The notes under the pieces are model-generated. The model saw only the letters and a list, made by a program, of their open reading frames with translations. It was not told where the DNA came from and ran no database searches. Positions 3,138 to 53,752 of a stretch of DNA of 64,000 bases are shown here, piece by piece. The stretch's first letter is position 1. The number at the start of each line of letters is the position of its first letter. The DNA lies in the NCBI RefSeq assembly GCF_003790525.1, contig NZ_CP033635.1. One strand, given 5' to 3'. This DNA is from Escherichia coli (GTDB lineage Bacteria > Pseudomonadota > Gammaproteobacteria > Enterobacterales > Enterobacteriaceae). A program made the translations under genes and the position numbers.

Positions 3138-3899
3138 ATGATTTTAAGTGCATTTTCTCTCGAAGGTAAAGTTGCGGTCGTCACTGGTTGTGATACTGGG
3201 CTGGGCCAGGGGATGGCGTTGGGGCTGGCGCAAGCGGGCTGTGACATTGTTGGCATTAACATCGTTGAACCGACTGAAACCATCAAGCAGGTCACGGCGC
3301 TGGGGCGTCGTTTTTTAAGCCTGACCGCCGATCTGCGAAAGATTGATGGCATTCCAGCACTGCTGGATCGCGCGGTAGCGGAGTTTGGTCATATTGATAT
3401 CCTGGTGAATAACGCCGGATTGATTCGCCGCGAAGACGCTCTCGAGTTCAGCGAAAAAGACTGGGACGATGTCATGAACCTGAATATCAAGAGCGTATTC
3501 TTCATGTCTCAGGCAGCGGCGAAACACTTTATCGCGCAAGGCAATGGCGGCAAGATTATCAATATCGCGTCAATGCTCTCCTTCCAGGGCGGGATCCGTG
3601 TGCCTTCTTATACCGCATCAAAAAGCGGCGTGATGGGCGTGACGCGATTGATGGCGAATGAATGGGCTAAACACAACATTAATGTTAATGCGATAGCTCC
3701 GGGTTACATGGCGACCAACAATACTCAACAACTACGGGCAGATGAACAACGTAGCGCGGAAATTCTCGACCGCATTCCAGCTGGCCGTTGGGGACTGCCG
3801 AGTGACCTGATGGGGCCGGTAGTGTTTCTTGCCTCCAGTGCTTCAGATTATGTGAATGGTTATACCATTGCCGTGGATGGCGGTTGGCTGGCTCGTTAA
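3138..3899 (+). CDS. kduD: 2-dehydro-3-deoxy-D-gluconate 5-dehydrogenase (SDR family)
   Basis: 253-aa ORF with SDR Rossmann motif (VTGCDTGLG) and catalytic YTASK; matches K-12 KduD. Confidence 0.9.
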   Translation: MILSAFSLEGKVAVVTGCDTGLGQGMALGLAQAGCDIVGINIVEPTETIKQVTALGRRFLSLTADLRKIDGIPALLDRAVAEFGHIDILVNNAGLIRREDALEFSEKDWDDVMNLNIKSVFFMSQAAAKHFIAQGNGGKIINIASMLSFQGGIRVPSYTASKSGVMGVTRLMANEWAKHNINVNAIAPGYMATNNTQQLRADEQRSAEILDRIPAGRWGLPSDLMGPVVFLASSASDYVNGYTIAVDGGWLAR

Positions 3900-3920
3900 T
3901 CCATTCTTCTTACTTTTATG

Positions 3921-3946
3921 ACCCTGCCGCATGGCAGGGTTTTTTA
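3921..3946 (+). terminator. Intrinsic terminator after kduD
   Basis: Hairpin ACCCTGCC-gcatg-GGCAGGGT followed by a T-run, 22 bp after the kduD stop. Confidence 0.6.
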
Positions 3947-4213
3947 TACCTGTAGATCATCATAATCCATATCATGGTTATGAAATAATCCATATCAATT
4001 ATCAATTAATGAACTTTATGAATTTTATCTGCTTTAAAATTAGTTGGTTAATAATAATCTCAATAATTCAACTTAATTTGAAAATTGGAATATCCATCAC
4101 ATAACGACATGTCGCAGCAATTTAATCCATATTTATGCTATTTCCGACCTGACACCTGTGTGAATTGTTCACGTATTTTTTCACTATGTCTTACTCTCTG
4201 CTGGCAGGAAAAA

Positions 4214-11448: not shown

Positions 11449-11530
11449 CCCAGAGGTATTGATAGGTGAAGTCAACTTCGGGTTGAGCACATGAATTACA
11501 CCAGCCTGCGCAGATGCGCAGGTTTTTTTT
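11449..11530 (+). ncRNA. omrB: OmrB small RNA
   Basis: Starts CCCAGAGGTATTGATAGGTGAAGTC..., ends with GC-rich hairpin GCGCAGATGCGCAGG plus a T-run; shares 5' and 3' ends with the copy about 200 bp downstream; sits between galR and aas as in K-12. Confidence 0.85.
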
Positions 11531-11645: not shown

Positions 11646-11733
11646 CCCAGAGGTATTGATTGGTGAGATTATTCGGTACGCTCTTCGTACCCTGTCTCTT
11701 GCACCAACCTGCGCGGATGCGCAGGTTTTTTTT
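11646..11733 (+). ncRNA. omrA: OmrA small RNA
   Basis: Starts CCCAGAGGTATTGATTGGTGAGATTATTCGG..., ends with hairpin GCGCGGATGCGCAGG plus a T-run; paralog of omrB. Confidence 0.85.
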
Positions 11734-15204: not shown

Positions 15205-16860
15205 TCACATTCCCGAAGGGTGCATACCTTTCGGATACTTCACGCTGTATGAGAATGGCAGACTCACGTTCTCTTTACCTGACAGTTTCAGCGTCCAGGA
15301 CAGTTCACCCGTTTTCGCATCAAACTGCGCCTGACCATACTGCATTTTTTCCACCGTAATATCACTATTAGCACTGACTGGGATCTGGTCGAGCAGAGTG
15401 ATATCCACCGCGTCGCCGTAGCTGTTCTTTACATTAAGGGTGTAACTGAAGTTGCGCACCGCGCTGTCATTAAAGATAGATAACGCATTCTCTTTTTTGA
15501 GTACGGCTTTACGTTGAATAATCAGCTTGGGATCGCGGTTAAGCTGAATATCCAGCGACTTGCCATCTTCCGGCGGCTGCAAATAGCCCACGCCGGTACG
15601 ATTGTTACCAAAGAAGATCTGACTTTCGCCGGGGATTAAATTTAACTGTTCCCACTCTTTAATTTGCACCTGGAGATAAGCGTCATTACTGATCTTCGGA
15701 ATAGCAAAGAAGCGATATTCACCGCTGACCGATTCCTCCTTAATGACCACCGTGCGCGCGGTGTTGTCGCTGTCGATTTGCCACGGCAGCGAAAGCGCAT
15801 AGCGAACATTTTGCGCGGTGAAACTTTCTGGTCGCGCCGAAGCTGGTGCTGCCTGTGCGGCATACTTGCGCCCGGCTGGTCGCTCCCTTGATTTTTGCAT
15901 CTCTGCCTCCAGGGATTTCTGCAATTCTGATGCATCCTGGTCAGACGAATATTCCGAACGCTGTTTCATCACGGGTGTTGCTGAAAGCGAGCCGCTTACA
16001 CCACCATACTCAGTCACATCCACATACAGAGGTTCCAGGTGTGGCAGCGTGAGATGAGTATCAGGTTCACTGGTCGAGAGCACGAGATTAACGTTTTTCC
16101 ATGGCAACCCCGTATACTGGCGAATATTAGCCTTGTAAACCAGACGCAGCGGTTGGTTTATGCCCGTGGCGTGAATATCATAGATCGGCGTCCATGTAGC
16201 ATCAGGAGTTATATAATGCACCACCGCTTTCGCAGTGACGGCTTTTGGGACATATACCTTAGCGATGATAACCTGCGGATCATCGGATGCCTCTGAATCA
16301 CCGTTATTCATACTCTCGCGTTGCTCCAACTTTTCAATTCCAAGCTGGTTATCAGCAAGTTTCTGCGTCAACTCATTGTCAGCCCGTAATAACTCACCAT
16401 TTTTCTCTTTCACCATTTGCAGATACTTGCCAACTTCGGCGGCACTTTTATTGGTTAATGTGCTATTTGCCTCTAATACCTTAATTTGAGCCGCGATATT
16501 GTTTTTCTCGGCGGTCAGTTTTGCCTGTTCCACCTTTACTGCTTTTAACTGTTGCTGAGTATCTGACGGCAGCGCATTCGGCTGTGTTTCCATTAGCGCG
16601 ATACGTGAGGAAAGCACCGTCACTCCGTTATCGATAGAAATGGCGATGCTGTCGTCGGTTACCGAATTGGCGATATTAGTGAAAATAATTTCGCTTTCAC
16701 CTGCCGGTAAGTTGAGTGTCTCTTCACCTTGTAGGCTGGCACCATGCAGATAAACAGTGACGTCTTTGAGTGTTAGCGCTTGAGTTAACTGCGCCCCCCA
16801 GGCGGAGGACAGGCACCCGGTAAGCAACATGGCGAGGGGAATAGGTTTGAAAATCAACAT
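15205..16860 (-). CDS. Hypothetical secreted or lipo-protein with central coiled coil (DUF4139/DUF4140-like architecture, tentative); not recalled in K-12
   Basis: ORF track 15205..16875 (556 aa, TTG); likelier start is the ATG at 16858-16860 preceded by AAGGA (MLIFKPIPLAMLLTGCLSSAWGAQ...); N-terminal signal peptide with possible lipobox LTGC; heptad-like QQQLKAVKVEQAKLTAEKNNIAAQIKVLEAN...; domain assignment is from memory. Confidence 0.7.
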   Translation of the reverse strand: MLIFKPIPLAMLLTGCLSSAWGAQLTQALTLKDVTVYLHGASLQGEETLNLPAGESEIIFTNIANSVTDDSIAISIDNGVTVLSSRIALMETQPNALPSDTQQQLKAVKVEQAKLTAEKNNIAAQIKVLEANSTLTNKSAAEVGKYLQMVKEKNGELLRADNELTQKLADNQLGIEKLEQRESMNNGDSEASDDPQVIIAKVYVPKAVTAKAVVHYITPDATWTPIYDIHATGINQPLRLVYKANIRQYTGLPWKNVNLVLSTSEPDTHLTLPHLEPLYVDVTEYGGVSGSLSATPVMKQRSEYSSDQDASELQKSLEAEMQKSRERPAGRKYAAQAAPASARPESFTAQNVRYALSLPWQIDSDNTARTVVIKEESVSGEYRFFAIPKISNDAYLQVQIKEWEQLNLIPGESQIFFGNNRTGVGYLQPPEDGKSLDIQLNRDPKLIIQRKAVLKKENALSIFNDSAVRNFSYTLNVKNSYGDAVDITLLDQIPVSANSDITVEKMQYGQAQFDAKTGELSWTLKLSGKENVSLPFSYSVKYPKGMHPSGM

Positions 16861-25478: not shown

Positions 25479-25949
25479 ATGAAAACACAACGTGGTTATA
25501 CGCTGATTGAAACGCTGGTCGCGATGCTGATTCTGGTCATGCTAAGCGCAAGTGGGCTCTATGGCTGGCAATATTGGCAGCAGTCGCAACGGCTTTGGCA
25601 AACCGCCAGCCAGGCGCGGGACTATTTGCTCTATTTACGTGAAGATGCCAACTGGCATAACCGCGACCACAGTATCAGTGTTATCAGGGAGGGGACGTTA
25701 TGGTGCCTTGTGAGTTCCGCTGCTGGGGCCAATACCTGTCATGGCAGTTCACCATTGGTCTTTGTGCCACGCTGGCCCGAAGTCGAAATGAGCGATCTGA
25801 CACCTTCGCTTGCTTTCTTTGGCCTGCGCAATACCGCATGGGCCGGGCATATTCGCTTCAAAAACTCAACGGGCGAGTGGTGGCTGGTGGTTTCGCCGTG
25901 GGGAAGACTCCGGCTTTGTCAGCAAGGAGAAACAGAAGGATGCCTGTAA
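25479..25949 (+). CDS. ppdA: Prepilin-peptidase-dependent protein A (type IV pilin-like)
   Basis: 156-aa ORF with N-terminal prepilin motif [13 protein letters not shown]. Confidence 0.85.
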
Positions 25950-26503
25950 AAGAGCAAGGTTTTTCTCTGCTGGAAGTGTTGATTGCTATGGCGATCAGTA
26001 GCGTATTGTTGCTGGGGGCTGCACGCTTTCTGCCTGCGTTACAGCGTGAAAGTTTAACGAGCACCCGTAAGCTGGCGCTGGAAGATGAAATCTGGCTGCG
26101 GGTATTTACCGTCGCGAAGCATCTCCAGAGGGCGGGTTATTGTCATGGCAGCTGTACCGGCGAAGGGCTGGAAATTGTCGGACAGGGTGACTGTGTCATT
26201 GTGCAGTGGGATGCGAACAGTAACGGTATCTGGGATCGCGAACCGGTAAAAGAGTCCGACCAGATTGGATTTCGTCTGAAGGAGCATGTGCTGGAAACGC
26301 TACGCGGTGCGACATCCTGTGAAGGTAAGGGCTGGGATAAAGTGACTAATCCGGATGCCATCATTATCGACACTTTTCAGGTCGTACGTCAGGATGTCAG
26401 CGGCTTCTCGCCGGTGTTGACGGTTAATATGCGTGCTGCCAGTAAGTCTGAACCGCAAACCGTGGTGAATGCCAGCTATAGCGTGACAGGATTCAACCTG
26501 TGA
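25940..26503 (+). CDS. ppdB: Prepilin-peptidase-dependent protein B
   Basis: ORF 25700..26503; chosen start is the internal ATG at 25940 ([26 protein letters not shown], prepilin-like N-terminus), overlapping the ppdA stop. Confidence 0.8.
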
Positions 26504-26907
26504 ACCGCGAAAAGGGGGGCTCGTCACTGGCTCTGGTCCTGATGCTGCTGATTTTGGGTAGCTTGCTATTACAAGGAATGAGTCAGCAGGATCGCAGTTT
26601 TGCCTCTCGCGTGAGCATGGAAAGTCAGTCATTGCGCCGCCAGGCCATCGTTCAGTCGACGCTGGAGTGGGGAAAAATGCACTCCTGGCAGACACAGCCC
26701 GCAGTTCAGTGCTTACTGTACGCTGCCACCGGTGCCCGGGTTTGTCTGCGTTTATTGGCAGATAATGAGGCTTTATTGATTGCCGGTTATGAAGGCGTTT
26801 CGTTGTGGCGAACAGGCGAAGTCATCGATGGAAACATTGTTTTTTCGCCACGCGGCTGGAGCGATTTTTGTCCGCTGAAAGAGAGGGCGTTATGTCAGCT
26901 TCCCTGA
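26500..26907 (+). CDS. ygdB: Pilin-like hypothetical protein YgdB
   Basis: 135-aa ORF overlapping the ppdB stop; N-terminal hydrophobic segment. Confidence 0.8.
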
Positions 26908-27215
26908 AGAATCAACAAGGCTTTAGTCTGCCGGAGGTAATGTTGGCGATGGTGTTGATGGTGATGATTGTCACTGCGTTATCGGGTTTCCAGCGAACAT
27001 TAATGAACAGTCTTGCCAGCAGAAACCAGTACCAACAGCTCTGGCGGCATGGCTGGCAGCAAACGCAACTGCGTGCGATTTCGCCACCTGCCAACTGGCA
27101 GGTCAACCGAATGCAGACATCGCAGGCGGGATGTGTCAGCATCAACGTTACGCTAGTTTCACCCGGGGGCAGAGAAGGCGAGATGACCCGCCTGCATTGC
27201 CCGAATCGTCAGTAG
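26892..27215 (+). CDS. ppdC: Prepilin-peptidase-dependent protein C
   Basis: Internal ATG at 26892 of ORF 26805..27215 gives [21 protein letters not shown] (prepilin motif). Confidence 0.8.
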
Positions 27216-27227
27216 TCAGGAGCCGCT

Positions 27228-30200
27228 ATGTTAAGGGTCTACCATTCCAATCGTCTGGACGTGCTGGAAGCGTTGATGGAGTTTATTGTCGAACGCGAAC
27301 GGCTGGACGATCCTTTCGAACCAGAGATGATTCTGGTGCAAAGTACCGGTATGGCGCAGTGGCTGCAAATGACCCTGTCGCAAAAGTTTGGTATTGCGGC
27401 AAACATTGATTTTCCGCTGCCAGCGAGCTTTATCTGGGATATGTTCGTCCGGGTGTTACCGGAAATCCCCAAAGAGAGCGCCTTTAACAAACAGAGCATG
27501 AGCTGGAAACTGATGACTCTGCTGCCGCAACTGTTGGAGCGCGAAGACTTTACCCTGTTGCGGCATTATCTGACTGACGATAGTGACAAGCGAAAACTGT
27601 TCCAGCTTTCTTCAAAAGCGGCGGACCTGTTTGACCAGTATCTGGTCTATCGTCTGGACTGGCTGGCACAGTGGGAAACAGGACATCTGGTAGAAGGGTT
27701 GGGAGAAGCACAGGCCTGGCAAGCGCCGTTGTGGAAGGCGTTGGTGGAATATACCGACGAACTCGGGCAACCGCGCTGGCACCGCGCCAATCTCTATCAG
27801 CGCTTTATCGAAACGCTGGAGTCCGCGACGACCTGCCCGCCGGGGCTACCTTCGCGCGTCTTTATATGCGGTATTTCCGCGTTACCGCCTGTTTATCTCC
27901 AGGCGCTACAGGCGCTGGGTAAACATATTGAAATCCATCTCCTGTTTACCAACCCCTGCCGTTATTACTGGGGCGACATTAAAGATCCTGCTTATCTGGC
28001 GAAACTGCTGACTCGCCAGCGCCGACACAGTTTTGAAGATCGCGAATTACCGTTATTTCGCGACAGCGAAAATGCCGGACAGCTCTTTAACAGCGATGGT
28101 GAACAGGATGTCGGTAACCCGCTGCTGGCCTCATGGGGCAAGCTTGGGCGCGACTACATTTATCTTCTTTCTGACCTGGAGGGCAGCCAGGAGCTGGACG
28201 CTTTTGTCGATGTGACGCCAGACAACCTGCTGCATAACATTCAGTCTGACATTCTGGAACTGGAAAACCGCGCCGTTGCGGGTGTGAACATCGAAGAGTT
28301 TTCCCGTAGCGATAACAAACGCCCGCTTGATCCACTGGATAGCAGTATCACCTTCCACGTTTGCCATAGCCCGCAGCGTGAAGTTGAAGTTTTACACGAT
28401 CGCTTGCTGGCGATGCTGGAGGAAGACCCGACACTTACTCCGCGCGACATCATCGTGATGGTGGCCGACATCGACAGCTACAGTCCGTTTATTCAGGCAG
28501 TGTTTGGTAGCGCACCTGCGGATCGTTACCTGCCTTACGCCATTTCCGACCGTCGTGCGCGGCAGTCACATCCGGTACTGGAAGCGTTTATCAGCCTGTT
28601 ATCACTGCCTGACAGTCGCTTTGTGTCAGAGGATGTGCTGGCGCTGCTGGATGTGCCGGTGCTGGCGGCGCGGTTTGACATCACCGAAGAAGGGCTGCGT
28701 TATTTACGTCAGTGGGTCAACGAATCTGGCATTCGTTGGGGGATAGATGACGACAACGTTCGCGAGCTGGAACTCCCCGCCACCGGACAACACACCTGGC
28801 GATTTGGCCTGACGCGTATGTTACTAGGCTACGCGATGGAGAGCGCGCAGGGCGAGTGGCAATCGGTTCTACCTTATGATGAATCGAGCGGCTTAATTGC
28901 AGAACTGGTGGGGCATCTGGCTTCACTGCTAATGCAGCTAAACATCTGGCGTCGCGGGCTGGCGCAGGAGCGTCCGCTGGAAGAGTGGTTGCCGGTTTGT
29001 CGCGATATGCTCAACGCCTTCTTCCTGCCGGATGCGGAAACCGAAGCGGCGATGACGCTGATCGAACAACAATGGCAGGCGATTATCGCCGAAGGTTTAG
29101 GTGCGCAGTATGGCGACGCGGTGCCGCTGTCACTATTGCGTGATGAACTGGCACAGCGCCTGGATCAGGAACGTATCAGCCAGCGTTTTCTCGCCGGACC
29201 GGTTAACATTTGTACTCTGATGCCAATGCGTTCCATCCCATTCAAAGTGGTTTGCCTGCTGGGAATGAACGACGGCGTTTATCCACGCCAGCTTGCGCCA
29301 TTGGGCTTTGACCTGATGAGCCAGAAACCGAAGCGTGGCGACCGTAGCCGTCGCGATGACGACCGCTATCTGTTCCTGGAAGCGTTAATTTCCGCGCAGC
29401 AAAAACTCTATATCAGCTATATCGGGCGTTCTATTCAGGATAACAGTGAACGTTTCCCGTCGGTACTGGTGCAGGAACTGATCGACTACATCGGGCAAAG
29501 CCATTATCTACCGGGCGATGAAGCGCTCAACTGTGATGAAAGCGAGGCAAGGGTAAAAGCACATCTTACTTGCCTCCATACCCGAATGCCGTTTGATCCA
29601 CAAAACTACCAGCCAGGCGAACGACAAAGCTATGCTCGTGAATGGCTACCCGCGGCCAGCCAGGCTGGTAAAGCACATTCTGAATTTGTTCAGCAGCTGC
29701 CGTTTACCTTACCGGAAACCGTGCCGCTGGAAACGCTACAACGATTCTGGGCACATCCGGTGCGGGCATTTTTCCAGATGCGTTTGCAGGTGAACTTCCG
29801 TACCGAAGACAGCGAAATCCCCGACACCGAGCCATTTATTCTGGAAGGACTTAGCCGTTATCAAATCAATCAGCAGTTATTGAATGCACTGGTTGAGCAG
29901 GATGATGCCGAACGCTTGTTCCGCCGCTTCCGGGCGGCAGGGGATTTACCGTATGGCGCTTTTGGTGAAATTTTCTGGGAAACACAGTGCCAGGAGATGC
30001 AGCAGCTTGCCGACAGAGTCATTGCCTGTCGCCAGCCGGGGCAGAGTATGGAAATTGACCTCGCCTGCAACGGTGTGCAGATAACTGGCTGGTTGCCGCA
30101 GGTGCAGTCGGATGGCCTGTTGCGCTGGCGTCCCTCTTTATTAAGTGTGGCGCAGGGAATGCAACTTTGGCTGGAACACCTTGTCTACTGTGCCAGCGGT

Positions 30201-30596
30201 GGTAATGGTGAAAGTCGCCTTTTTCTACGCAAAGACGGCGAGTGGCGTTTTCCGCCGCTTGCAGCCGAACAGGCTTTACATTACCTCTCACAGCTGATTG
30301 AAGGGTATCGTGAAGGAATGTCCGCGCCATTGCTGGTGTTACCTGAAAGTGGCGGCGCGTGGCTAAAAACCTGTTATGACGCGCAAAACGATGCCATGCT
30401 GGATGACGATTCCACGTTGCAAAAAGCCCGAACGAAATTCCTTCAGGCTTACGAAGGCAACATGATGGTGCGTGGCGAAGGTGATGATATCTGGTATCAA
30501 CGGCTCTGGCGGCAATTAACACCAGAGACAATGGAGGCCATCGTTGAACAGTCGCAACGTTTCCTGTTACCGCTGTTTCGCTTTAATCAGTCATGA
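27228..30596 (+). CDS. recC: Exodeoxyribonuclease V gamma subunit
   Basis: 1122-aa ORF MLRVYHSNRLDVLEALMEF... Confidence 0.9.
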   Translation: MLRVYHSNRLDVLEALMEFIVERERLDDPFEPEMILVQSTGMAQWLQMTLSQKFGIAANIDFPLPASFIWDMFVRVLPEIPKESAFNKQSMSWKLMTLLPQLLEREDFTLLRHYLTDDSDKRKLFQLSSKAADLFDQYLVYRLDWLAQWETGHLVEGLGEAQAWQAPLWKALVEYTDELGQPRWHRANLYQRFIETLESATTCPPGLPSRVFICGISALPPVYLQALQALGKHIEIHLLFTNPCRYYWGDIKDPAYLAKLLTRQRRHSFEDRELPLFRDSENAGQLFNSDGEQDVGNPLLASWGKLGRDYIYLLSDLEGSQELDAFVDVTPDNLLHNIQSDILELENRAVAGVNIEEFSRSDNKRPLDPLDSSITFHVCHSPQREVEVLHDRLLAMLEEDPTLTPRDIIVMVADIDSYSPFIQAVFGSAPADRYLPYAISDRRARQSHPVLEAFISLLSLPDSRFVSEDVLALLDVPVLAARFDITEEGLRYLRQWVNESGIRWGIDDDNVRELELPATGQHTWRFGLTRMLLGYAMESAQGEWQSVLPYDESSGLIAELVGHLASLLMQLNIWRRGLAQERPLEEWLPVCRDMLNAFFLPDAETEAAMTLIEQQWQAIIAEGLGAQYGDAVPLSLLRDELAQRLDQERISQRFLAGPVNICTLMPMRSIPFKVVCLLGMNDGVYPRQLAPLGFDLMSQKPKRGDRSRRDDDRYLFLEALISAQQKLYISYIGRSIQDNSERFPSVLVQELIDYIGQSHYLPGDEALNCDESEARVKAHLTCLHTRMPFDPQNYQPGERQSYAREWLPAASQAGKAHSEFVQQLPFTLPETVPLETLQRFWAHPVRAFFQMRLQVNFRTEDSEIPDTEPFILEGLSRYQINQQLLNALVEQDDAERLFRRFRAAGDLPYGAFGEIFWETQCQEMQQLADRVIACRQPGQSMEIDLACNGVQITGWLPQVQSDGLLRWRPSLLSVAQGMQLWLEHLVYCASGGNGESRLFLRKDGEWRFPPLAAEQALHYLSQLIEGYREGMSAPLLVLPESGGAWLKTCYDAQNDAMLDDDSTLQKARTKFLQAYEGNMMVRGEGDDIWYQRLWRQLTPETMEAIVEQSQRFLLPLFRFNQS

Positions 30597-30771
30597 GTGC
30601 TGTATAAAAATTGCGCAATATATCTGCTTGCTTTATGATGCGCACCAGTCACGGACTGATGGATATATAGACATAGGCTGACTCGTGCAGCACAAGATTA
30701 AATTCTGGCAGATGATTTGCGTTAACCTGTTGAATCTGGCCAGAAAATAAAGTTGATTATGAGGTCCGTGA

Positions 30772-33660
30772 ATGCCCCGCAGCATCTGGTTCAAAGCATT
30801 ATTGTTGTTTGTTGCCCTTTGGGCACCCTTAAGTCAGGCAGAAACGGGATGGCAGCCGATTCAGGAAACCATCCGTAAAAGTGATAAAGATAACCGCCAG
30901 TATCAGGCTATACGTCTGGATAACGGTATGGTGGTCTTGCTGGTTTCTGATCCGCAGGCGGTTAAATCGCTCTCGGCGCTGGTGGTGCCCGTTGGGTCGC
31001 TGGAAGATCCCGAGGCGTATCAGGGGCTGGCGCATTACCTTGAACACATGAGTCTGATGGGGTCGAAAAAGTACCCGCAGGCTGACAGTCTGGCCGAATA
31101 TCTCAAAATGCACGGCGGCAGTCACAATGCCAGCACGGCACCGTATCGCACGGCTTTCTATCTGGAAGTTGAGAACGACGCCTTGCCCGGTGCGGTAGAC
31201 CGCCTGGCGGACGCTATTGCAGAACCCTTGCTCGACAAGAAATACGCCGAACGTGAACGTAATGCAGTGAATGCCGAATTAACCATGGCGCGTACGCGTG
31301 ACGGGATGCGCATGGCACAGGTCAGCGCAGAAACCATTAACCCGGCACACCCCGGTTCAAAGTTTTCTGGTGGTAACCTCGAAACCTTAAGCGACAAACC
31401 AGGTAATCCGGTACAGCAGGCGCTGAAAGATTTCCACGAGAAGTACTATTCCGCCAATCTGATGAAGGCGGTTATTTACAGTAATAAACCGTTGCCGGAG
31501 TTGGCAAAAATGGCGGCGGACACCTTTGGTCGCGTGCCGAACAAAGAGAGCAAAAAACCGGAAATCACCGTGCCGGTAGTCACCGACGCGCAAAAGGGCA
31601 TTATCATTCATTACGTCCCGGCGTTGCCGCGTAAAGTTCTGCGCGTTGAGTTTCGCATCGATAACAATTCAGCGAAGTTCCGTAGTAAAACGGATGAATT
31701 GATTACCTATCTGATTGGTAATCGCAGCCCAGGTACACTTTCTGACTGGCTGCAAAAGCAGGGATTAGTTGAGGGTATTAGCGCCAATTCCGATCCTATC
31801 GTCAACGGCAACAGCGGCGTATTAGCGATCTCTGCGTCTTTAACCGATAAAGGTCTGGCGAATCGCGATCAGGTTGTGGCGGCCATTTTTAGCTACCTCA
31901 ATCTGTTACGCGAAAAAGGGATTGATAAACAATACTTCGATGAACTGGCGAATGTGCTGGATATCGACTTCCGTTATCCGTCAATCACCCGTGATATGGA
32001 TTACGTCGAATGGCTGGCAGATACCATGATTCGCGTTCCTGTTGAGCATACGCTGGATGCAGTCAATATTGCCGATCGGTACGACGCTAAAGCAGTAAAA
32101 GAACGCCTGGCGATGATGACGCCGCAGAATGCGCGTATCTGGTATATCAGCCCGAAAGAGCCGCACAACAAAACGGCTTACTTTGTCGATGCGCCGTATC
32201 AGGTCGATAAAATTAGCGCACAAACTTTCGCTGACTGGCAGAAAAAAGCCGCCGACATTGCGCTCTCTTTGCCAGAGCTTAACCCCTATATTCCTGACGA
32301 TTTCTCGCTGATTAAGTCAGAGAAGAAATATGACCATCCAGAGCTGATTGTTGATGAGTCGAATCTGCGTGTGGTGTATGCGCCAAGCCGTTATTTTTCC
32401 AGCGAACCCAAAGCTGATGTCAGCCTGATTTTGCGTAATCCAAAAGCCATGGATAGCGCCCGCAATCAGGTGATGTTTGCGCTCAATGATTATCTCGCAG
32501 GGCTGGCGCTTGATCAGTTAAGCAACCAGGCGTCGGTTGGTGGCATAAGTTTTTCCACCAATGCTAACAACGGCCTTATGGTTAATGCCAATGGTTACAC
32601 CCAGCGCCTGCCGCAGCTGTTCCAGGCATTGCTCGAGGGGTACTTTAGCTATACCGCTACGGAAGATCAGCTTGAGCAGGCGAAGTCCTGGTATAACCAG
32701 ATGATGGATTCTGCAGAAAAGGGCAAAGCGTTCGAGCAGGCGATTATGCCCGCGCAGATGCTCTCGCAAGTACCATACTTCTCGCGAGATGAACGGCGCA
32801 AAATTTTGCCCTCCATTACTTTGAAAGAGGTGATGGCCTATCGCGACGCCTTAAAATCAGGGGCTCGACCAGAGTTTATGGTTATCGGCAACATGACCGA
32901 GGCCCAGGCAACAACGCTGGCACGCGATGTGCAAAAACAGTTGGGCGCTGATGGTTCGGAGTGGTGTCGTAACAAAGATGTCGTGGTCGATAAAAAACAA
33001 TCCGTCATCTTTGAAAAAGCCGGTAACAGCACCGACTCCGCACTGGCAGCGGTATTTGTACCGACTGGCTACGATGAATACACCAGTTCAGCGTATAGTT
33101 CTCTGTTGGGGCAGATCGTACAGCCGTGGTTCTACAATCAGTTGCGTACCGAAGAACAGTTGGGCTATGCCGTGTTTGCGTTTCCAATGAGCGTGGGGCG
33201 TCAGTGGGGCATGGGCTTCCTGTTGCAAAGCAATGATAAACAGCCTTCATTCTTGTGGGAGCGTTACAAGGCGTTTTTCCCGACCGCAGAAGCGAAACTG
33301 CGGGCGATGAAGCCAGAAGAGTTTGCGCAAATCCAGCAGGCGGTAATTACCCAGATGCTGCAGGCACCGCAAACGCTCGGCGAAGAAGCATCGAAGTTAA
33401 GTAAAGATTTCGATCGCGGCAATATGCGCTTCGATTCGCGTGATAAAATCGTGGCCCAGATAAAACTGCTGACGCCGCAAAAACTTGCTGATTTCTTCCA
33501 TCAGGCGGTGGTCGAGCCGCAAGGTATGGCTATTCTGTCGCAGATTTCCGGCAGCCAGAACGGGAAAGCCGAATATGTGCATCCTGAAGGCTGGAAAGTG
33601 TGGGAGAACGTCAGCGCGTTGCAGCAAACAATGCCCCTGATGAGTGAAAAGAATGAGTGA
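30772..33660 (+). CDS. ptrA: Protease III (pitrilysin), periplasmic M16 zinc metalloprotease
   Basis: 962-aa ORF with signal peptide and inverted zinc motif HYLEHM. Confidence 0.9.
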   Translation: MPRSIWFKALLLFVALWAPLSQAETGWQPIQETIRKSDKDNRQYQAIRLDNGMVVLLVSDPQAVKSLSALVVPVGSLEDPEAYQGLAHYLEHMSLMGSKKYPQADSLAEYLKMHGGSHNASTAPYRTAFYLEVENDALPGAVDRLADAIAEPLLDKKYAERERNAVNAELTMARTRDGMRMAQVSAETINPAHPGSKFSGGNLETLSDKPGNPVQQALKDFHEKYYSANLMKAVIYSNKPLPELAKMAADTFGRVPNKESKKPEITVPVVTDAQKGIIIHYVPALPRKVLRVEFRIDNNSAKFRSKTDELITYLIGNRSPGTLSDWLQKQGLVEGISANSDPIVNGNSGVLAISASLTDKGLANRDQVVAAIFSYLNLLREKGIDKQYFDELANVLDIDFRYPSITRDMDYVEWLADTMIRVPVEHTLDAVNIADRYDAKAVKERLAMMTPQNARIWYISPKEPHNKTAYFVDAPYQVDKISAQTFADWQKKAADIALSLPELNPYIPDDFSLIKSEKKYDHPELIVDESNLRVVYAPSRYFSSEPKADVSLILRNPKAMDSARNQVMFALNDYLAGLALDQLSNQASVGGISFSTNANNGLMVNANGYTQRLPQLFQALLEGYFSYTATEDQLEQAKSWYNQMMDSAEKGKAFEQAIMPAQMLSQVPYFSRDERRKILPSITLKEVMAYRDALKSGARPEFMVIGNMTEAQATTLARDVQKQLGADGSEWCRNKDVVVDKKQSVIFEKAGNSTDSALAAVFVPTGYDEYTSSAYSSLLGQIVQPWFYNQLRTEEQLGYAVFAFPMSVGRQWGMGFLLQSNDKQPSFLWERYKAFFPTAEAKLRAMKPEEFAQIQQAVITQMLQAPQTLGEEASKLSKDFDRGNMRFDSRDKIVAQIKLLTPQKLADFFHQAVVEPQGMAILSQISGSQNGKAEYVHPEGWKVWENVSALQQTMPLMSEKNE

Positions 33661-36600
33661 TGTCGCCGAGACACTAGATCCTTTGCGCTTGCCCTTACAG
33701 GGCGAGCGCCTGATTGAAGCCTCTGCCGGCACAGGCAAAACCTTTACGATTGCGGCGCTCTATTTGCGCCTGTTACTTGGACTAGGCGGTTCTGCCGCCT
33801 TTCCCCGCCCGCTGACCGTTGAAGAACTGCTGGTGGTCACCTTTACCGAGGCTGCCACGGCAGAATTGCGCGGTCGTATCCGTAGCAATATCCACGAGTT
33901 GCGCATCGCCTGTCTGCGTGAAACCACCGACAATCCACTGTACGAACGCCTGCTGGAAGAGATCGACGATAAAGCGCAAGCCGCGCAGTGGTTGTTGTTA
34001 GCCGAGCGGCAGATGGATGAAGCGGCAGTCTTTACTATTCACGGCTTTTGCCAGCGCATGCTCAACCTGAATGCCTTTGAATCCGGCATGCTGTTTGAGC
34101 AGCAGCTGATTGAAGATGAGTCTCTGCTACGCTACCAGGCCTGCGCCGATTTCTGGCGTCGCCACTGCTACCCGCTGCCGCGTGAAATTGCCCAGGTCGT
34201 CTTTGAAACCTGGAAAGGGCCGCAGGCGTTACTGCGCGATATTAATCGTTATCTGCAAGGCGAAGCGCCGGTTATCAAAGCGCCGCCGCCCGATGATGAA
34301 ACGCTGGCTTCCCGCCACGCGCAAATTGTGGCGCGTATTGATACGGTAAAACAGCAGTGGCGCGACGCGGTGGGTGAACTGGATGCGCTGATCGAATCTT
34401 CTGGTATTGATCGACGCAAGTTTAACCGTAGCAATCAGGCTAAATGGATCGACAAGATCAGCGCCTGGGCAGAAGAAGAGACCAACAGCTATCAGTTGCC
34501 AGAGTCGCTGGAAAAATTCTCTCAGTGTTTCTTAGAAGATCGCACGAAAGCCGGGGGGGAAACCCCGCGACATCCACTGTTTGAGGCGATCGATCAACTG
34601 CTTGCAGAACCATTGTCGATCCGCGATCTGGTGATCACTCGCGCATTAGCTGAGATCCGCGAAACAGTAGCGCGTGAAAAACGCCGCCGTGGCGAATTGG
34701 GTTTTGATGACATGTTAAGTCGGCTCGATTCCGCGCTGCGTAGTGAAAGCGGCGAGGTATTGGCAGCGGCGATCCGTACGCGATTCCCGGTGGCAATGAT
34801 CGATGAATTTCAGGATACCGACCCCCAGCAGTACCGAATTTTTCGCCGTATCTGGCACCATCAGCCGGAAACCGCATTGTTGCTGATTGGCGACCCGAAA
34901 CAGGCCATTTATGCATTCCGGGGTGCGGATATCTTCACTTATATGAAGGCGCGTAGCGAAGTTCACGCCCACTACACCTTAGACACCAACTGGCGTTCCG
35001 CACCGGGAATGGTGAACAGCGTTAACAAACTTTTCAGCCAGACTGATGACGCGTTCATGTTTCGTGAAATACCGTTTATTCCTGTGAAATCTGCCGGGAA
35101 AAATCAGGCGTTACGTTTTGTGTTTAAAGGTGAAACGCAGCCTGCGATGAAAATGTGGCTGATGGAAGGCGAAAGCTGCGGCGTTGGCGACTATCAAAGT
35201 ACCATGGCGCAGGTATGTGCTGCGCAAATCCGCGACTGGTTACAGGCTGGGCAGCGCGGGGAAGCGTTGCTGATGAACGGCGATGATGCACGTCCGGTAC
35301 GTGCTTCGGACATCAGTGTGCTGGTGCGCAGCCGCCAGGAGGCCGCTCAGGTGCGCGATGCCTTAACGCTGCTGGAAATCCCTTCCGTTTACCTTTCGAA
35401 CCGCGACAGTGTTTTTGAAACTCTGGAAGCACAGGAGATGCTTTGGCTGTTGCAGGCGGTGATGACACCCGAACGTGAGAACACCCTGCGCAGTGCGCTG
35501 GCAACGTCAATGATGGGGCTGAATGCGCTGGATATTGAAACGCTGAATAATGACGAACATGCGTGGGATGCGGTAGTCGAAGAGTTCGATGGTTATCGGC
35601 AAATCTGGCGCAAACGTGGCGTTATGCCGATGCTGCGGGCGCTGATGTCGGCGCGTAACATTGCAGAAAACTTGCTGGCAACAGCAGGCGGTGAGCGGCG
35701 TCTTACCGATATCTTGCATATCAGCGAATTGCTACAAGAAGCCGGCACGCAGCTGGAAAGTGAACATGCGCTGGTACGCTGGTTATCGCAACATATCCTC
35801 GAGCCAGACAGTAATGCCTCCAGCCAACAAATGCGTCTCGAAAGTGATAAACATCTCGTGCAGATTGTCACGATCCACAAATCGAAAGGGCTGGAATATC
35901 CATTGGTCTGGCTGCCGTTTATCACCAATTTCCGCGTCCAGGATCAGGCGTTTTATCACGATCGCCACTCGTTTGAGGCTGTTCTGGATCTTAATGCTGC
36001 GCCAGAAAGCGTCGACCTCGCGGAGGCCGAACGTCTGGCGGAAGATCTGCGTTTGCTTTACGTGGCGCTGACGCGTTCGGTTTGGCATTGCAGTCTCGGC
36101 GTTGCACCGCTGGTGCGCCGTCGTGGCGATAAAAAAGGTGATACCGACGTCCACCAAAGTGCGCTCGGGCGTTTGCTGCAAAAAGGGGAACCGCAAGATG
36201 CGGCAGGGCTTCGCACCTGTATTGAAGCGTTATGCGATGATGATATTGCCTGGCAAACGGCACAAACTGGTGATAACCAGCCCTGGCAGGTTAATGATGC
36301 ATTAACTGCAGAACTGAATGCGAGGACGCTACAACGATTGCCCGGCGATAACTGGCGTGTCACCAGCTACTCCGGTTTGCAGCAGCGTGGTCACGGTATC
36401 GCTCAGGATCTGATGCCACGGTTGGATGTTGATGCCGCAGGCGTGGTCAGCGTCGTTGAAGAACCGACGTTAACACCGCATCAGTTCCCGCGCGGTGCGT
36501 CACCGGGGACATTCTTGCACAGTTTGTTTGAAGACCTCGATTTTACCCAGCCGGTTGACCCGAACTGGGTACAGGAAAAACTGGAGCTCGGTGGCTTTGA

Positions 36601-37195
36601 ACCGCAGTGGGAACCGGTGTTGACTGAGTGGATCACGGCTGTCCTCCAGGCACCTCTCAATGAAACGGGTGTTAGCCTGAATCAGCTTTCCGATCGCGAT
36701 AAACAGGTGGAGATGGAGTTTTACCTGCCGATTAGTGAACCGCTTATCGCCAGCCAGCTTGATGCACTAATTCGCCAGTTTGACCCGCTATCCGCTGGCT
36801 GCCCGCCGCTGGAGTTCATGCAGGTACGCGGCATGTTAAAAGGCTTTATCGACCTGGTATTCCGCCACGAAGGGCGTTATTACCTGCTCGACTATAAATC
36901 CAACTGGTTGGGTGAAGACAGTTCGGCTTACACCCAACAGGCTATGGCAGCGGCAATGCAGGCACACCGCTATGATCTGCAATATCAGCTTTATACCCTG
37001 GCGCTGCACCGTTATCTGCGCCATCGCATTGCTGATTATGACTATGAGCGCCACTTTGGCGGCGTTATTTATCTGTTCCTGCGTGGCGTTGATAAAGAAC
37101 ATCCGCAACAAGGGATCTACGCGACCCGACCCAACGCCGGGTTGATTGACCTGATGGATGAGATGTTTGCCGGTATGACCCTGGAGGAGGCGTAA
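33653..37195 (+). CDS. recB: Exodeoxyribonuclease V beta subunit (helicase/nuclease)
   Basis: Start ATG at 33653 ([30 protein letters not shown], Walker A) overlapping the ptrA stop; the ORF track begins 9 bp earlier. Confidence 0.9.
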
Positions 37196-39021
37196 TGAAA
37201 TTGCAAAAGCAATTACTGGAAGCTGTGGAGCACAAACAGCTACGCCCGCTGGACGTGCAGTTTGCCCTGACCGTGGCGGGAGATGAACATCCTGCCGTCA
37301 CCCTCGCGGCGGCACTGTTAAGTCATGATGCCGGAGAGGGACACGTTTGTTTGCCGCTTTCACGACTGGAAAATAACGAGGCATCGCATCCGCTGTTGGC
37401 GACCTGTGTCAGTGAAATCGGTGAGCTACAAAATTGGGAAGAATGCTTGCTGGCTTCACAAGCGGTCAGCCGGGGAGATGAACCAACGCCGATGATCCTC
37501 TGTGGCGATCGTCTTTATTTGAATCGCATGTGGTGTAACGAGCGCACAGTGGCACGCTTTTTCAACGAAGTGAATCATGCCATTGAGGTTGATGAAGCTC
37601 TACTGGCGCAAACCCTGGACAAACTTTTTCCAGTAAGCGATGACATTAACTGGCAAAAAGTGGCGGCGGCAGTGGCGCTGACGCGGCGGATTTCGGTGAT
37701 TTCCGGCGGTCCTGGCACCGGTAAAACGACCACCGTAGCGAAGTTGCTGGCAGCCTTAATTCAAATGGCCGACGGAGAACGCTGCCGTATCCGTCTGGCT
37801 GCACCAACGGGTAAAGCTGCCGCGCGCTTAACCGAATCTCTCGGCAAGGCTTTGCGCCAGTTACCGCTGACCGATGAACAAAAGAAACGCATTCCGGAAG
37901 ATGCCAGTACTTTGCACCGATTGCTGGGCGCACAGCCGGGTAGCCAGCGTTTACGTCATCATGCCGGTAACCCGCTGCATCTTGATGTGCTGGTAGTAGA
38001 TGAAGCGTCAATGATCGATCTGCCGATGATGTCGAGACTGATAGACGCCTTGCCCGATCATGCGCGAGTGATCTTTCTCGGCGATCGTGATCAACTGGCC
38101 TCGGTTGAGGCTGGGGCTGTGCTGGGCGATATTTGTGCTTATGCCAATGCCGGCTTTACCGCCGAGCGTGCCGGGCAGCTAAGCCGCCTGACGGGAACTC
38201 ACATTCCGTCAGGAACTGGCACAGAAGCGGCATCTTTGCGCGACAGTCTCTGCCTGCTGCAAAAAAGCTATCGTTTCGGCAGCGATTCTGGCATTGGTCA
38301 GTTAGCTGCGGCGATTAACCGTGGTGATAAAATGGCAGTGAAAACCGTTTTTCAGCAGGATTTTACTGATATCGAAAAACGGCTTTTACAGAGCGGCGAA
38401 GATTATATTGCGATGCTTGAGGAAGCTCTTTCGGGTTACGGACGTTATCTGGATCTGCTGCAAGCGCGTGCCGAGCCGGATTTAATCATTCAGGCGTTCA
38501 ATGAGTACCAGCTTTTGTGCGCCCTGCGGGAAGGGCCGTTTGGCGTGGCTGGACTGAATGAGCGAATTGAGCAGTTTATGCAACAGAAGCGCAAAATTCA
38601 TCGTAATCCGCACTCTCGTTGGTACGAAGGCCGACCGGTGATGATTGCCCGTAATGACAGCGCGCTTGGGTTGTTTAATGGCGATATCGGTATTGCGCTG
38701 GATCGCGGGCAGGGGACGCGCGTCTGGTTTGCGATGCCGGACGGCAATATTAAGTCTGTGCAACCGAGTCGCTTGCCAGAGCACGAAACGACGTGGGCGA
38801 TGACGGTACATAAATCGCAGGGATCGGAGTTCGACCATGCGGCGTTGATTTTACCGAGCCAACGCACGCCAGTAGTAACACGAGAGCTGGTTTACACTGC
38901 GGTGACCCGCGCGCGTCGCCGTCTGTCGCTGTATGCCGATGAGCGCATTTTAAGTGCGGCAATTGCCACGCGCACCGAGCGGCGCAGCGGTCTGGCGGCG
39001 TTGTTTAGTTCACGGGGATAA
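37195..39021 (+). CDS. recD: Exodeoxyribonuclease V alpha subunit
   Basis: 608-aa ORF; ATG overlaps the recB TAA (TAATG); Walker [11 protein letters not shown]. Confidence 0.9.
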
Positions 39022-39082: not shown

Positions 39083-40414
39083 TTACCCTAAATCCGCCAT
39101 CAAAACTTTGGATTTACGCTGGTAGTTGTACAACTGCTTTTTGCTCTCGGGCAGTAAATCAATATCCACTGGGGTAAATCCACGTTCCTGGAACCAGTGA
39201 ATACTGCGCGTGGTCAGCACAAACAATTTGCTTAAGCCGCTCTGCTTCGCCTGAGCGGCAATGCGTTCCAGCAGAACCTCGCCCCGTGATGAGCTGCGGT
39301 AATCCGGGTGAACTGCCACACAGGCCATTTCCCCAATCTTCTCTTCCGGGAACGGATAGAGCGCGGCGCAGGCAATAGTCGTGTTATCGCGCTGAATAAT
39401 GGTGAATTTGTCGATTTCCATCTCCAGCTGCTCGCGAGAACGGCGTACCAGAATACCTTGCTGCTCCAGTGGGCGAATCAACTCCAGAATGCCGCCAATA
39501 TCGTTGATTGTTGCGCGACGAATTTGCTCGGCGCTTTCCATCACAATCTGCGTACCGATACCGTCACGTGAGAACAACTCTTGCAACAGCGCGCCATCTT
39601 CCTGATAACTGATTAAATGACAGCGACGCACGCCGCTGCGGCAGGCTTTCACTGCGCCACGCAAAAAGCGCACCGTACCGGAGTTGTAATCGCCTTTCTC
39701 TTCCTGGGCTTCTACCCGCGCTTGCGCTTCGTTAGGGAAAAGTTCTGAGACAATATCACCGTCGTCATTAGTGACGCCCTGTGAAGAGCAAAAACCAATC
39801 ATCTTCTCAGCTTTCAGTTTGATGGCCAGTTGAGTGGCAATCTCTTCCGAGGTCAGATTAAAGCTCTCGCCAGTGACTGAAACCGCGACCGGCCCCAGCA
39901 GCACTATCGCACCGCTGTCCAGTTGACGATGAATCGCATCTTCGTCAATCCGCCGGATACGCCCGCTATGGCAGTAATCCACACCGTCATCCACGCCCAG
40001 CGGCTGGGCAATAATAAAATTGCCACTGACGACGTTGATATGCGCGCCCTGCAGCGGCGTGTTATTGAGACTCATCGACAGGCGAGCAGTAATATCCAGT
40101 TGCAATGTTCCCGCAGCCTGCTTCACCAGTTCCAGTGTTTTGGCGTCGGTCACGCGTATATTTTTGTGATATAGCGGTTCGTGGTGATGCGCTGCCAGAT
40201 TTGCATCGATCTGCGGGCGCGCTCCATAGACCACGACCAGACGGATGCCGAGGCTGTGCAGCAACCCGATATCATTAACGATACTGGAGAAATTCTCATG
40301 CTCAATGGCTTCACCGCCGAGCATTATGACAAACGTTTTTCCCCGGTGGGTATTGATATAGGGAACCGAATGGCGGAATCCCTCGACCAACTCGGTTTTA
40401 CGTTCCTTTACCAC
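39083..40414 (-). CDS. argA: N-acetylglutamate synthase
   Basis: ORF track 39083..40480; annotated start is the GTG at 40412-40414, giving (M)[33 protein letters not shown]...; amino-acid kinase plus GNAT domains. Confidence 0.9.
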
Positions 40415-40645
40415 GGCACACCTCTTTGCATGATTATTCGAAATTATTGTATTTTTATTCTGTTTTTTCGCAGGGTGCAAGTGTAAATTTTATGCGGGAG
40501 CGACTTTTTTATCAGTAATACCGTGAATATAAAAAGAATGTTTACCGTTTTATAGATGACAGATTATGCGTCTTTCGCTAAAGTTTCCGGTCAAATTGGT
40601 CGTTTACTTGTTACACAGCTTAGATTTCTTTTGCTCGGGAGAGGC

Positions 40646-47464: not shown

Positions 47465-47541
<77 letters not shown>

Positions 47542-47575
47542 TCACCGTACTGCTTTTACTTCATCAAATTTTGAT

Positions 47576-47652
<77 letters not shown>

Positions 47653-47685
47653 TCACCGTACTGCTTTACTTCATCAAATTTTAAT

Positions 47686-47762
<77 letters not shown>

Positions 47763-52086: not shown

Positions 52087-52292
52087 AAAAAAAAGCACCG
52101 CAATTAGGCGGTGCTACATTAATCACTATGGACAGACAGGGTAAATGTACAGGAAGTGAAAAAAGGTAGCTTTGCTACCATGGTCTGAATCGCAGACCAA
52201 TTGCAAACACAACAACACAACATCACAACCGTAAGCCAAAAGTTCACCAGAACACGCATTCCGATAAAACTTTTCGTTCCGGCTCAGGAAGT
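52087..52292 (-). ncRNA. gcvB: GcvB small RNA
   Basis: Minus-strand sequence starts ACTTCCTGAGCCGGAACGAAAAGTTTTATCGGAATGCGTGTTCTGGTGAACTTTTGGCTTACGGTTGTGATGTTGTGTTGTTGTGTTTGC and ends in hairpin GCACCGCCTAATTGCGGTGC plus a U-run; divergent from gcvA. Confidence 0.85.
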
Positions 52293-53356: not shown

Positions 53357-53752
53357 ATGACCAGCCGTTTTATGCTGATTTTCGCCGCCATTAGCGGCTT
53401 CATTTTTGTGGCTCTGGGCGCTTTTGGCGCGCATGTGTTAAGTAAAACCATGGGGGCCGTTGAGATGGGCTGGATCCAGACCGGCCTCGAATACCAGGCG
53501 TTTCATACGCTGGCGATCTTAGGTCTGGCGGTGGCAATGCAGCGTCGCATCAGTATCTGGTTTTACTGGAGTAGCGTTTTCCTCGCGTTAGGCACGGTGC
53601 TGTTCAGCGGCAGCCTTTATTGCCTGGCGCTGTCCCATCTGCGTTTGTGGGCGTTTGTCACACCGGTTGGCGGTGTGAGCTTCCTTGCGGGCTGGGCGTT
53701 AATGTTAGTTGGTGCTATCCGTTTAAAGCGCAAGGGCGTAAGTCATGAATAA
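53357..53752 (+). CDS. ygdD: DUF423 inner-membrane protein
   Basis: 131-aa hydrophobic ORF overlapping the rlmM start. Confidence 0.85.

Follow-up and report, generated by a model that had tools for sequence, protein, structure and literature searches.

The window analysed here is a 64-kb stretch of Escherichia coli DNA in which recC, ptrA, recB and recD follow one another on the + strand. Each product was assigned by a curated NCBIfam equivalog profile. The recC CDS (27228..30596) ends 175 nt before ptrA and its product matches NF008289 with 2121 bits (cut-off 1470). The ptrA CDS (30772..33660), the first gene of the operon, encodes pitrilysin (protease III, M16 family), whose residues 1–959 match NF011681 with 1855 bits (cut-off 765). 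PtrA is a periplasmic protease and no subunit of RecBCD. The exodeoxyribonuclease V beta subunit (1180 aa) is encoded by recB (33653..37195; NF008128, 2339 bits, cut-off 1697), and the first 200 codons of its open reading frame match PDB RecB chains with an E-value of about 1e-127. The alpha subunit (608 aa) is encoded by recD (37195..39021; NF008127, 1135 bits, cut-off 671). Identical coordinates for ptrA (30772–33660), recB (33653–37195) and recD (37195–39021) are given by the RefSeq annotation of E. coli SMS-3-5 (NC_010498.1), which is 100% identical to the window, and over a 5-kb region most E. coli genomes are 95–99% identical to it.

A polycistronic mRNA has been reported for ptrA-recB-recD, while recC forms a separate operon (PMC12342828). 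The 36-nt Hfq-binding region published for the ptrA 5′UTR matches once, at 30722..30757 (+), with no match expected by chance; three of the 36 positions deviate from the K-12 sequence. In a consensus scan, weak evidence in itself, promoter-like sites were absent from the vicinity of recB and recD, which makes an internal promoter for either gene appear unlikely; terminator-like hits in the same scan occurred at the background rate (18 found, 14.7 expected).

Read from the sequence, the ptrA frame ends in ATG AGT GAA AAG AAT GAG TGA, with the stop codon TGA at 33658–33660. The recB ATG (33653–33655) lies 5 nt upstream of this stop codon. An earlier note, made from the letters of the window, had placed this ATG within the last codons of ptrA, and it agrees base for base: the 8 nt ATGAGTGA (33653..33660, +) are common to both genes and correspond to a -8 spacing. 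The second overlap noticed there, between the recB stop and the recD start, is likewise seen as TAATG (37193..37197, +), in which the recB TAA (37193–37195) and the recD ATG (37195–37197) share 1 nt (-1 spacing), in agreement with the RefSeq coordinates. A PtrA-RecB frameshift fusion at the first overlap was rejected on sequence grounds: only three codons of the recB frame are free of stops ahead of the ATG, they are not preceded by a canonical slippery heptamer, and a protein joining an exported protease with a cytoplasmic helicase would be biologically implausible.

Overlap by itself is ordinary here, since it occurs in 9 of the 37 co-directional CDS pairs of the window, with a length of 8 nt in three; across prokaryotes, about 15% of co-directional pairs overlap (PMC6728339). 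Stop/start spacings of -8, -4 and -1 are enriched in prokaryotes and have been linked to translational coupling (PMC12548453), and both junctions, at -8 and -1, qualify as overlapping pairs. What exceeds chance is the conservation of the two overlaps across Enterobacteriaceae. That of ptrA and recB is kept in 79 of 80 loci despite diverging junction sequence, with a length of 4 nt in 45, 8 nt in 31 plus the window, and 20 nt in 3; alignment reveals that the length shifts between genera via 1-nt indels near the end of ptrA. Within E. coli, 5227 of 5425 complete genomes match the 100-nt ptrA/recB junction with an identity of 99% or more. The sole exception among the 80 loci (L018) has ptrA and recB 413 nt apart with recB intact, and carries a GAGGA upstream of recB (Shine-Dalgarno (SD) duplex -5.8 kcal/mol). 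The reduced genomes L083–L086 are without the overlap. The recB/recD overlap is present in 78 of 78 loci, measures 1 or 4 nt, and takes the form ATGA (67), GTGA (3), TAATG (6) or TGATG (2).

The two downstream starts differ in the SD that usually, if not obligatorily, precedes the second gene of a coupled pair: recD has one and recB does not. Duplex energies with the anti-SD were -2.5 kcal/mol for recB, -12.1 for recD, -6.6 for recC and -6.3 for ptrA. The recB value, against a background mean of -2.77 kcal/mol, amounts to essentially no SD, and the same holds family-wide (median -3.0 kcal/mol, with -6 or lower in only 4%). The SD of recD, GGAGGAGG, lies within the last recB codons (37183..37190, +) and pairs with the 3′ end of the 16S rRNA within the top 1% of the background; its family-wide median is -9.9 kcal/mol, with 99% at -6 or lower.

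The program-made list of open reading frames gives a slightly longer recB (33644..37195, 1183 aa), three codons longer than annotated, because its rule of taking the first start after a stop picks GTG 33644. This codon (33644–33646) directly follows an in-frame TGA (33641–33643), the two together spanning 33641..33646 (+), and is the only start upstream of the ATG in the recB frame. Translation of RecB, or of a minor isoform, from here would yield a 1183-aa protein beginning VKR-MSDV, and at least one public protein cluster (P0003) has this length, by which alone it was judged. Among the 80 Enterobacteriaceae loci, the GTG is confined to Escherichia, most Citrobacter and one Salmonella (Salmonella arizonae), whereas every locus has the ATG. 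No start codon occupies the GTG position in Citrobacter amalonaticus (L012) or Phytobacter; in Salmonella diarizonae (L014) the GTG is destroyed by an AGT>AGC change that is silent in ptrA; and in Klebsiella, Enterobacter and others the recB frame is closed by a stop codon 0–6 nt before the recB ATG. The GTG, with an anti-SD duplex of +0.6 kcal/mol, has no SD, and thus shows neither the conservation nor the ribosome-binding site expected of an N-terminally extended RecB. Alignment with the annotated N-terminus, the check suggested by the earlier note, gives MSDVAETL in all deposited PDB sequences, from chain residue 1 in 1180-aa entries (e.g., 1W36) or residue 2 in 1181-aa entries, and the VKR extension is absent. 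RefSeq and the NCBIfam equivalog profile also support the ATG. The earlier choice of ATG over GTG therefore stands, and the start at 33644 that would have overturned it is rejected as the RecB start in view of conservation, SD strength and annotation; even a minor contribution from the GTG is highly improbable. On this comparative evidence, the start of RecB can be fixed at ATG 33653.

Downstream of the ptrA/recB junction, the mRNA is predicted to fold into a hairpin, GCGCUUGCCCU-UAC-AGGGCGAGCGC (33685..33709, +; -20.2 kcal/mol), which spans recB codons 11–19 and begins 25 nt after the ptrA stop. It persists across Enterobacteriaceae and is the only consensus structure kept by RNAalifold in 77 sequences; 83% of cells are paired as compared with at most 57% in slid controls, and none of 500 shuffles reaches the observed value. 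Conserved amino acids fix six of the nine core pairs, and the double changes occur in two clades, in which the segment has shifted to A or T at all its third codon positions. As the double changes coincide with this clade-wide shift, covariation was downgraded as proof of selection. A known RNA family was rejected, since Rfam gave no match at the junction or the hairpin at gathering thresholds. That the hairpin is a selected attenuator which, in combination with SD loss, keeps recB reinitiation at a few percent of the level of ptrA translation is a rather improbable proposal. If true, hairpin and SD loss would represent an adaptation that arose when ptrA entered between recC and recB, and the hairpin would be a second control point beside Hfq for a protein present at fewer than ten copies per cell.

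For the operon as described, with RecB starting at ATG 33653 and overlaps of -8 and -1, coupling by termination and reinitiation is the likeliest mechanism of translation, and one that we consider probable. The two spacings, the SD-less recB start and a published deletion in the ptrA 5′UTR together make coupling at these junctions plausible. Because recB is without an SD, its translation probably relies on ribosomes that have terminated on ptrA: most RecB would be made by ribosomes that finish ptrA at the UGA (33658–33660) and reinitiate, inefficiently, at the recB AUG a few nucleotides back. In that case only a small part of ptrA translation would lead on to RecB, which would explain how deletion of an Hfq site 2.9 kb upstream alters the amount of RecB per mRNA. 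This deletion, at the ptrA RBS in the 5′UTR, approximately doubles the RecB made per mRNA and also halves the mRNA; its authors interpret it as an effect of Hfq on the RBS of the operon (PMC12342828). The low level of RecB is ascribed in the literature to weak constitutive transcription combined with Hfq-limited translation. Tests on overlapping gene pairs of E. coli confirmed termination-reinitiation, bioBF being the exception, and removal of the SD usually reduced reinitiation (PMC6728339). An SD-less recB should therefore reinitiate poorly, which fits the low level of RecB and is no proof of coupling. At the -1 junction, the strong SD would allow recD to be translated efficiently by ribosomes leaving recB, so that RecD output would be tied to RecB output; as this SD belongs to recD itself, some independent initiation besides coupling is also possible. 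RecC would be made from its own transcript. We infer from this arrangement that reinitiation coupling operates and sets the protein ratios. The earlier suggestion that coupling keeps subunit stoichiometry low and linked goes too far, given that PtrA is not part of the complex, recC is expressed separately and recD has a strong SD.

The overlaps could instead be neutral products of genome compaction and stop-codon drift that play no part in regulation, with free 30S subunits starting on recB and on recD separately and de novo. Such a history would be in keeping with the base rates of overlap in the window (9 of 37) and across prokaryotes (~15%; PMC6728339), with an overlap length that varies between 4, 8 and 20 nt by 1-nt indels, with the two loci in which a gap precedes an intact recB (413 nt after ptrA in L018, 45 nt after recC in L082), with the strong SD of recD, and with E. 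coli bioBF, which is initiated de novo although its genes overlap (PMC6728339). That 79 of 80 and 78 of 78 species retain the overlaps while the junction sequence diverges argues against drift, however, and a recB SD that is not above background family-wide makes efficient de novo initiation unlikely. Moreover, a change in cis at the ptrA RBS shifts RecB per mRNA (PMC12342828). Taken together, these observations render neutrality unlikely.

Coupling might also operate by RNA unfolding, a model established for other gene pairs (PMC12548453), in which a structure hiding the recB start is melted by ribosomes translating the end of ptrA, so that free ribosomes can initiate. The 120 nt around the junction do fold more stably than shuffled sequence (-40.2 kcal/mol, z = -2.6, with 2 of 200 shuffles folding as well), but the centroid structure leaves both the A-rich stretch and the AUG unpaired, and the downstream hairpin is all that RNAalifold keeps in the 77 sequences, with no pairing at the recB RBS or AUG. 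A conserved structure hiding the recB start was rejected on these grounds. Even in unfolded RNA, an SD-less start would give a free 30S subunit little to bind, and we regard this route as quite improbable.

The junction architecture of ptrA-recB-recD came to light with the original sequencing of these genes in the 1980s, and the earlier note rightly called it known: the K-12 operon has identical gene order and overlaps. Coupling at these junctions has already been suggested in print, and the finding of the overlaps is correct but ordinary. To this, the present analysis adds the fixing of the RecB start at the ATG and the family-wide overlaps of drifting length; the contrast of an SD-less recB with the strong SDs at recD and at the ancestral recC-recB junction; and a possible hairpin element just downstream of the ptrA/recB junction. 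These are modest additions and describe no new kind of system. The question of how RecB output is set is nevertheless a real one, because RecBCD is present at fewer than ten molecules per cell and its excess impairs DNA repair (PMC12342828).

The closest known system is the ptr(ptrA)-recB-recD operon of E. coli K-12, recently re-examined by Kalita et al. (eLife 2025; PMC12342828), in which the genes, their order, the overlaps and the RecB N-terminus MSDVAETL are all alike. The differences from the window (SMS-3-5) are at strain level only, and the Hfq-bound region of the ptrA 5′UTR is present in both. Canonical coupled pairs display spacings of -4 (NTGA), -1 (TGATG or TAATG) or -8 (NTGNNTGA; Huber et al., 2019, PMC6728339; Brown and Wade, 2025, PMC12548453). 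The window has the -8 and -1 forms, and the -4 form is taken by the same two junctions in other Enterobacteriaceae. The downstream gene of such pairs usually has an SD, to which recD conforms, whereas recB has none above background. As the upstream gene ptrA is functionally unrelated to recB, coupling between these two cannot balance the subunits of a complex.

A different arrangement is seen outside the family. Loci without ptrA were reached by an exhaustive representative protein search, the initial search having given close relatives only. In a 59%-identical relative (L082), the order is ygdB-recC-recB-recD-argA-amiC. The ancestral order recC-recB-recD, found in other Gammaproteobacteria (L088, L089), places recC directly upstream of recB, whereas in Enterobacteriaceae ptrA lies between them. 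In these two loci the recB start overlaps the recC stop as TAATG or TGATG, recB and recD overlap as ATGA, and the SD at the recC-recB junction is strong (-9.3 and -11.1 kcal/mol), in contrast to the median of -3.0 kcal/mol for recB in Enterobacteriaceae.

The RefSeq annotation places recC at 27228–30596, ptrA at 30772–33660, recB at 33653–37195 (1180 aa) and recD at 37195–39021, followed by argA on the opposite strand (coordinates in locus L001 are converted to window coordinates by adding 23999). All four proteins, pitrilysin, RecB, RecD and RecC, score far over the curated NCBIfam equivalog cut-offs, and the 5-kb region around the junction matches E. coli SMS-3-5 (NC_010498.1) with 100% identity. 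Of 5426 complete E. coli genomes, 5425 contain this region. Read base by base, ptrA ends in AAT GAG TGA, with the TGA at 33658–33660, and shares 8 nt (ATGAGTGA) with recB, whose ATG occupies 33653–33655. The recB TAA (37193–37195) and the recD ATG (37195–37197) share 1 nt in TAATG. Both overlaps are as described in the earlier note, in every detail, and its remark that this architecture is known is right; the ptrA-recB-recD junctions are ordinary in this respect.

In the recB frame, a TGA (33641–33643) is directly followed by a GTG (33644–33646), so that the mechanical ORF list extends recB to 1183 aa. The comparison of 80 recB loci, one per species of Enterobacteriaceae and with 68–98% protein identity, reveals an ATG matching 33653 in every locus, followed by a conserved N-terminus beginning M-[STN]. 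The GTG, located 9 nt before the ATG, is restricted to Escherichia, most Citrobacter and Salmonella arizonae among these loci. At its position, Citrobacter amalonaticus (L012) has AAA and Salmonella diarizonae (L014) has GCG, the AGT>AGC change in L014 being silent in ptrA. Klebsiella, Enterobacter, Raoultella and others either have an in-frame stop 0–6 nt ahead of the ATG or lack a start codon there. No pairing of the GTG with the 16S rRNA 3' end is predicted (+0.6 kcal/mol). All deposited PDB RecB sequences carry MSDVAETL at the N-terminus, from residue 1 in 1180-aa chains or residue 2 in 1181-aa chains, and the VKR extension is absent from all of them. Poor conservation, the pairing energy and the PDB sequences lead us to reject the GTG, and the choice of the ATG over position 33644 in the earlier note is upheld. 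We regard the gene identities and the RecB start at the annotated ATG as nearly certain. A similar discrepancy is seen for argA, where the mechanical ORF (39083–40480, minus strand, 465 aa, TTG start) exceeds the annotated gene (39083–40414, 443 aa); as with recB, the longer ORF is a first-start-after-stop artefact.

Gene overlap alone is ordinary, and what stands out here is its conservation. About 15% of co-directional gene pairs overlap (PMC6728339), and the stop/start spacings enriched in prokaryotes are −4, −1 and −8 (PMC12548453). Of the 37 co-directional CDS pairs in the window, nine overlap (8, 1, 1, 1, 8, 16, 4, 10 and 8 nt). Seven of these overlaps lie outside the operon (10, 4, 16, 8, 1, 8 and 1 nt), at positions converted from the RefSeq record: ppdA-ppdB-ygdB-ppdC (25479–27215), rlmM/ygdD (~53745–53752), csdA/csdE (50445), aas/lplT (~15793–15800) and PTS EIIC/MalY-like (44593). 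Junctions of −8, −4 and −1 are therefore routine there. The ptrA/recB overlap is retained in 79 of the 80 loci, as ATGA in 45, as ATGANTGA in 31 (in addition to the window itself) and as 20 nt in three, and the alignment reveals that small indels at the ptrA end change its length while the overlap persists. The sole exception, Intestinirhabdus alba (L018), carries a 413-nt GC-rich spacer between the two genes, at positions 3588–4000 of its locus. Likewise, recB and recD overlap in all 78 intact loci (ATGA in 67, TAATG in six, GTGA in three and TGATG in two). Within E. coli, 5227 of 5425 genomes match the 100-nt ptrA/recB junction at ≥99% identity. In two loci recB is apparently interrupted, namely in E. 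coli E69 (L071, CP089930.1), where the match covers residues 1–666 only and the locus sequence ends at that point, and in C. amalonaticus AUH_CA_2023_1 (L074), where the frame stops after 106 codons; these could be real disruptions or assembly errors.

The recD start is preceded by a Shine-Dalgarno (SD) sequence (GGAGGAGG, 37183–37190) whose anti-SD duplex of −12.1 kcal/mol ranks in the top 1% of the local background. The corresponding energy at recB, −2.5 kcal/mol, equals background (mean −2.77), and recC and ptrA reach −6.6 and −6.3 kcal/mol. Family-wide, the median is −9.9 kcal/mol for recD (99% at or below −6) and −3.0 kcal/mol for recB (4%), and I. alba, which has no ptrA overlap, has a better recB SD (GAGGA upstream, −5.8 kcal/mol). 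The simplest reading is that recB would always have been read by ribosomes coming from the upstream gene; in Enterobacteriaceae this gene is ptrA, and the absence of an SD would keep reinitiation at recB inefficient. Among more distantly related genomes, two loci with the ancestral recC-recB-recD order (L088 and L089) have a 1-nt recC/recB overlap and strong SDs (−9.3 and −11.1 kcal/mol), and the 59%-identical locus L082 (GCA_018257615.1) has the order ygdB-recC-recB-recD-argA-amiC, without ptrA and with a 45-nt recC-recB gap. As ptrA is absent between recC and recB in all three (49–59% RecB identity), its insertion is lineage-restricted. In AT-rich reduced genomes the overlaps are lost.

Translational coupling at these junctions is a plausible and rather likely inference. 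Neutral overlap with independent initiation, especially of recD, is possible: the strong recD SD would permit it, and it agrees with the I. alba exception and with the changing length of the overlap, but the near-universal retention of the overlaps and the SD-less recB are less well explained in this way. Near recB and recD, a consensus scan found no promoter-like site, and Rfam has no matching family. Elsewhere in the window, Rfam identifies the sRNA GcvB (52087–52292, minus strand), the tandem sRNAs OmrA/OmrB (11449–11530 and 11646–11733, plus strand) and three tandem tRNA genes (47468–47762, minus strand; tRNA-Met in RefSeq). Close to the window start (~250–1270) there are also an IS1A copy and a tRNA-Gly. 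RNA unfolding as the basis of coupling is weakly supported by the 120-nt junction, which folds better than its shuffles (z = −2.6). In the centroid, however, both the A-rich leader and the AUG are open, and RNAalifold finds no conserved pairing around the recB start in 77 sequences.

The sole consensus element retained by RNAalifold in these 77 Enterobacteriaceae sequences is a perfect 11-bp hairpin in recB codons 11–19 (33685–33709, GCGCUUGCCCU-UAC-AGGGCGAGCGC, −20.2 kcal/mol), which begins 25 nt beyond the ptrA stop. Its partners pair in 83% of cells, compared to at most 57% with slid partners, the observed values are reached by 0 of 500 shuffles, and three third-codon positions show double changes. 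Conservation of the residues R-L-P and G-E-R already dictates six of the nine core pairs, and the double changes are confined to two clades in which all third positions of the segment have shifted to A or T. Since the conserved residues and the clade-wide codon shift confound the apparent covariation, selection on the structure does not follow. Structure just 3' of the upstream gene's stop has been reviewed to reduce coupling efficiency (PMC12548453), and the hairpin could therefore help to hold RecB low, albeit with low probability.

The coupling proposed in the earlier note is reasonable, but its claim that coupling "keeps subunit stoichiometry low and linked" overreaches, because PtrA does not form part of RecBCD, RecC comes from another operon and experiments have ascribed the low level to weak transcription together with translation limited by Hfq. 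The most that coupling would do is tie RecD to RecB and set RecB output at a small fraction of ptrA translation. The Hfq-binding region of the ptrA 5'UTR is present at 30722–30757 with 3 mismatches in 36 nt to K-12; the mismatches also affect the A-rich GAAAAT(T/A)AAG stretch. In published experiments, the ptrA-recB-recD operon is polycistronic with constitutive but weak transcription, RecB is present at <10 copies per cell, the Hfq binding site adjoins the ptrA RBS, and when 36 nt are deleted at this site, which lies 2.9 kb away from the start of recB, the RecB yield per mRNA increases from 7.9 to 16.3 proteins (PMC12342828). These findings are consistent with reinitiation at recB by ribosomes that have translated ptrA.
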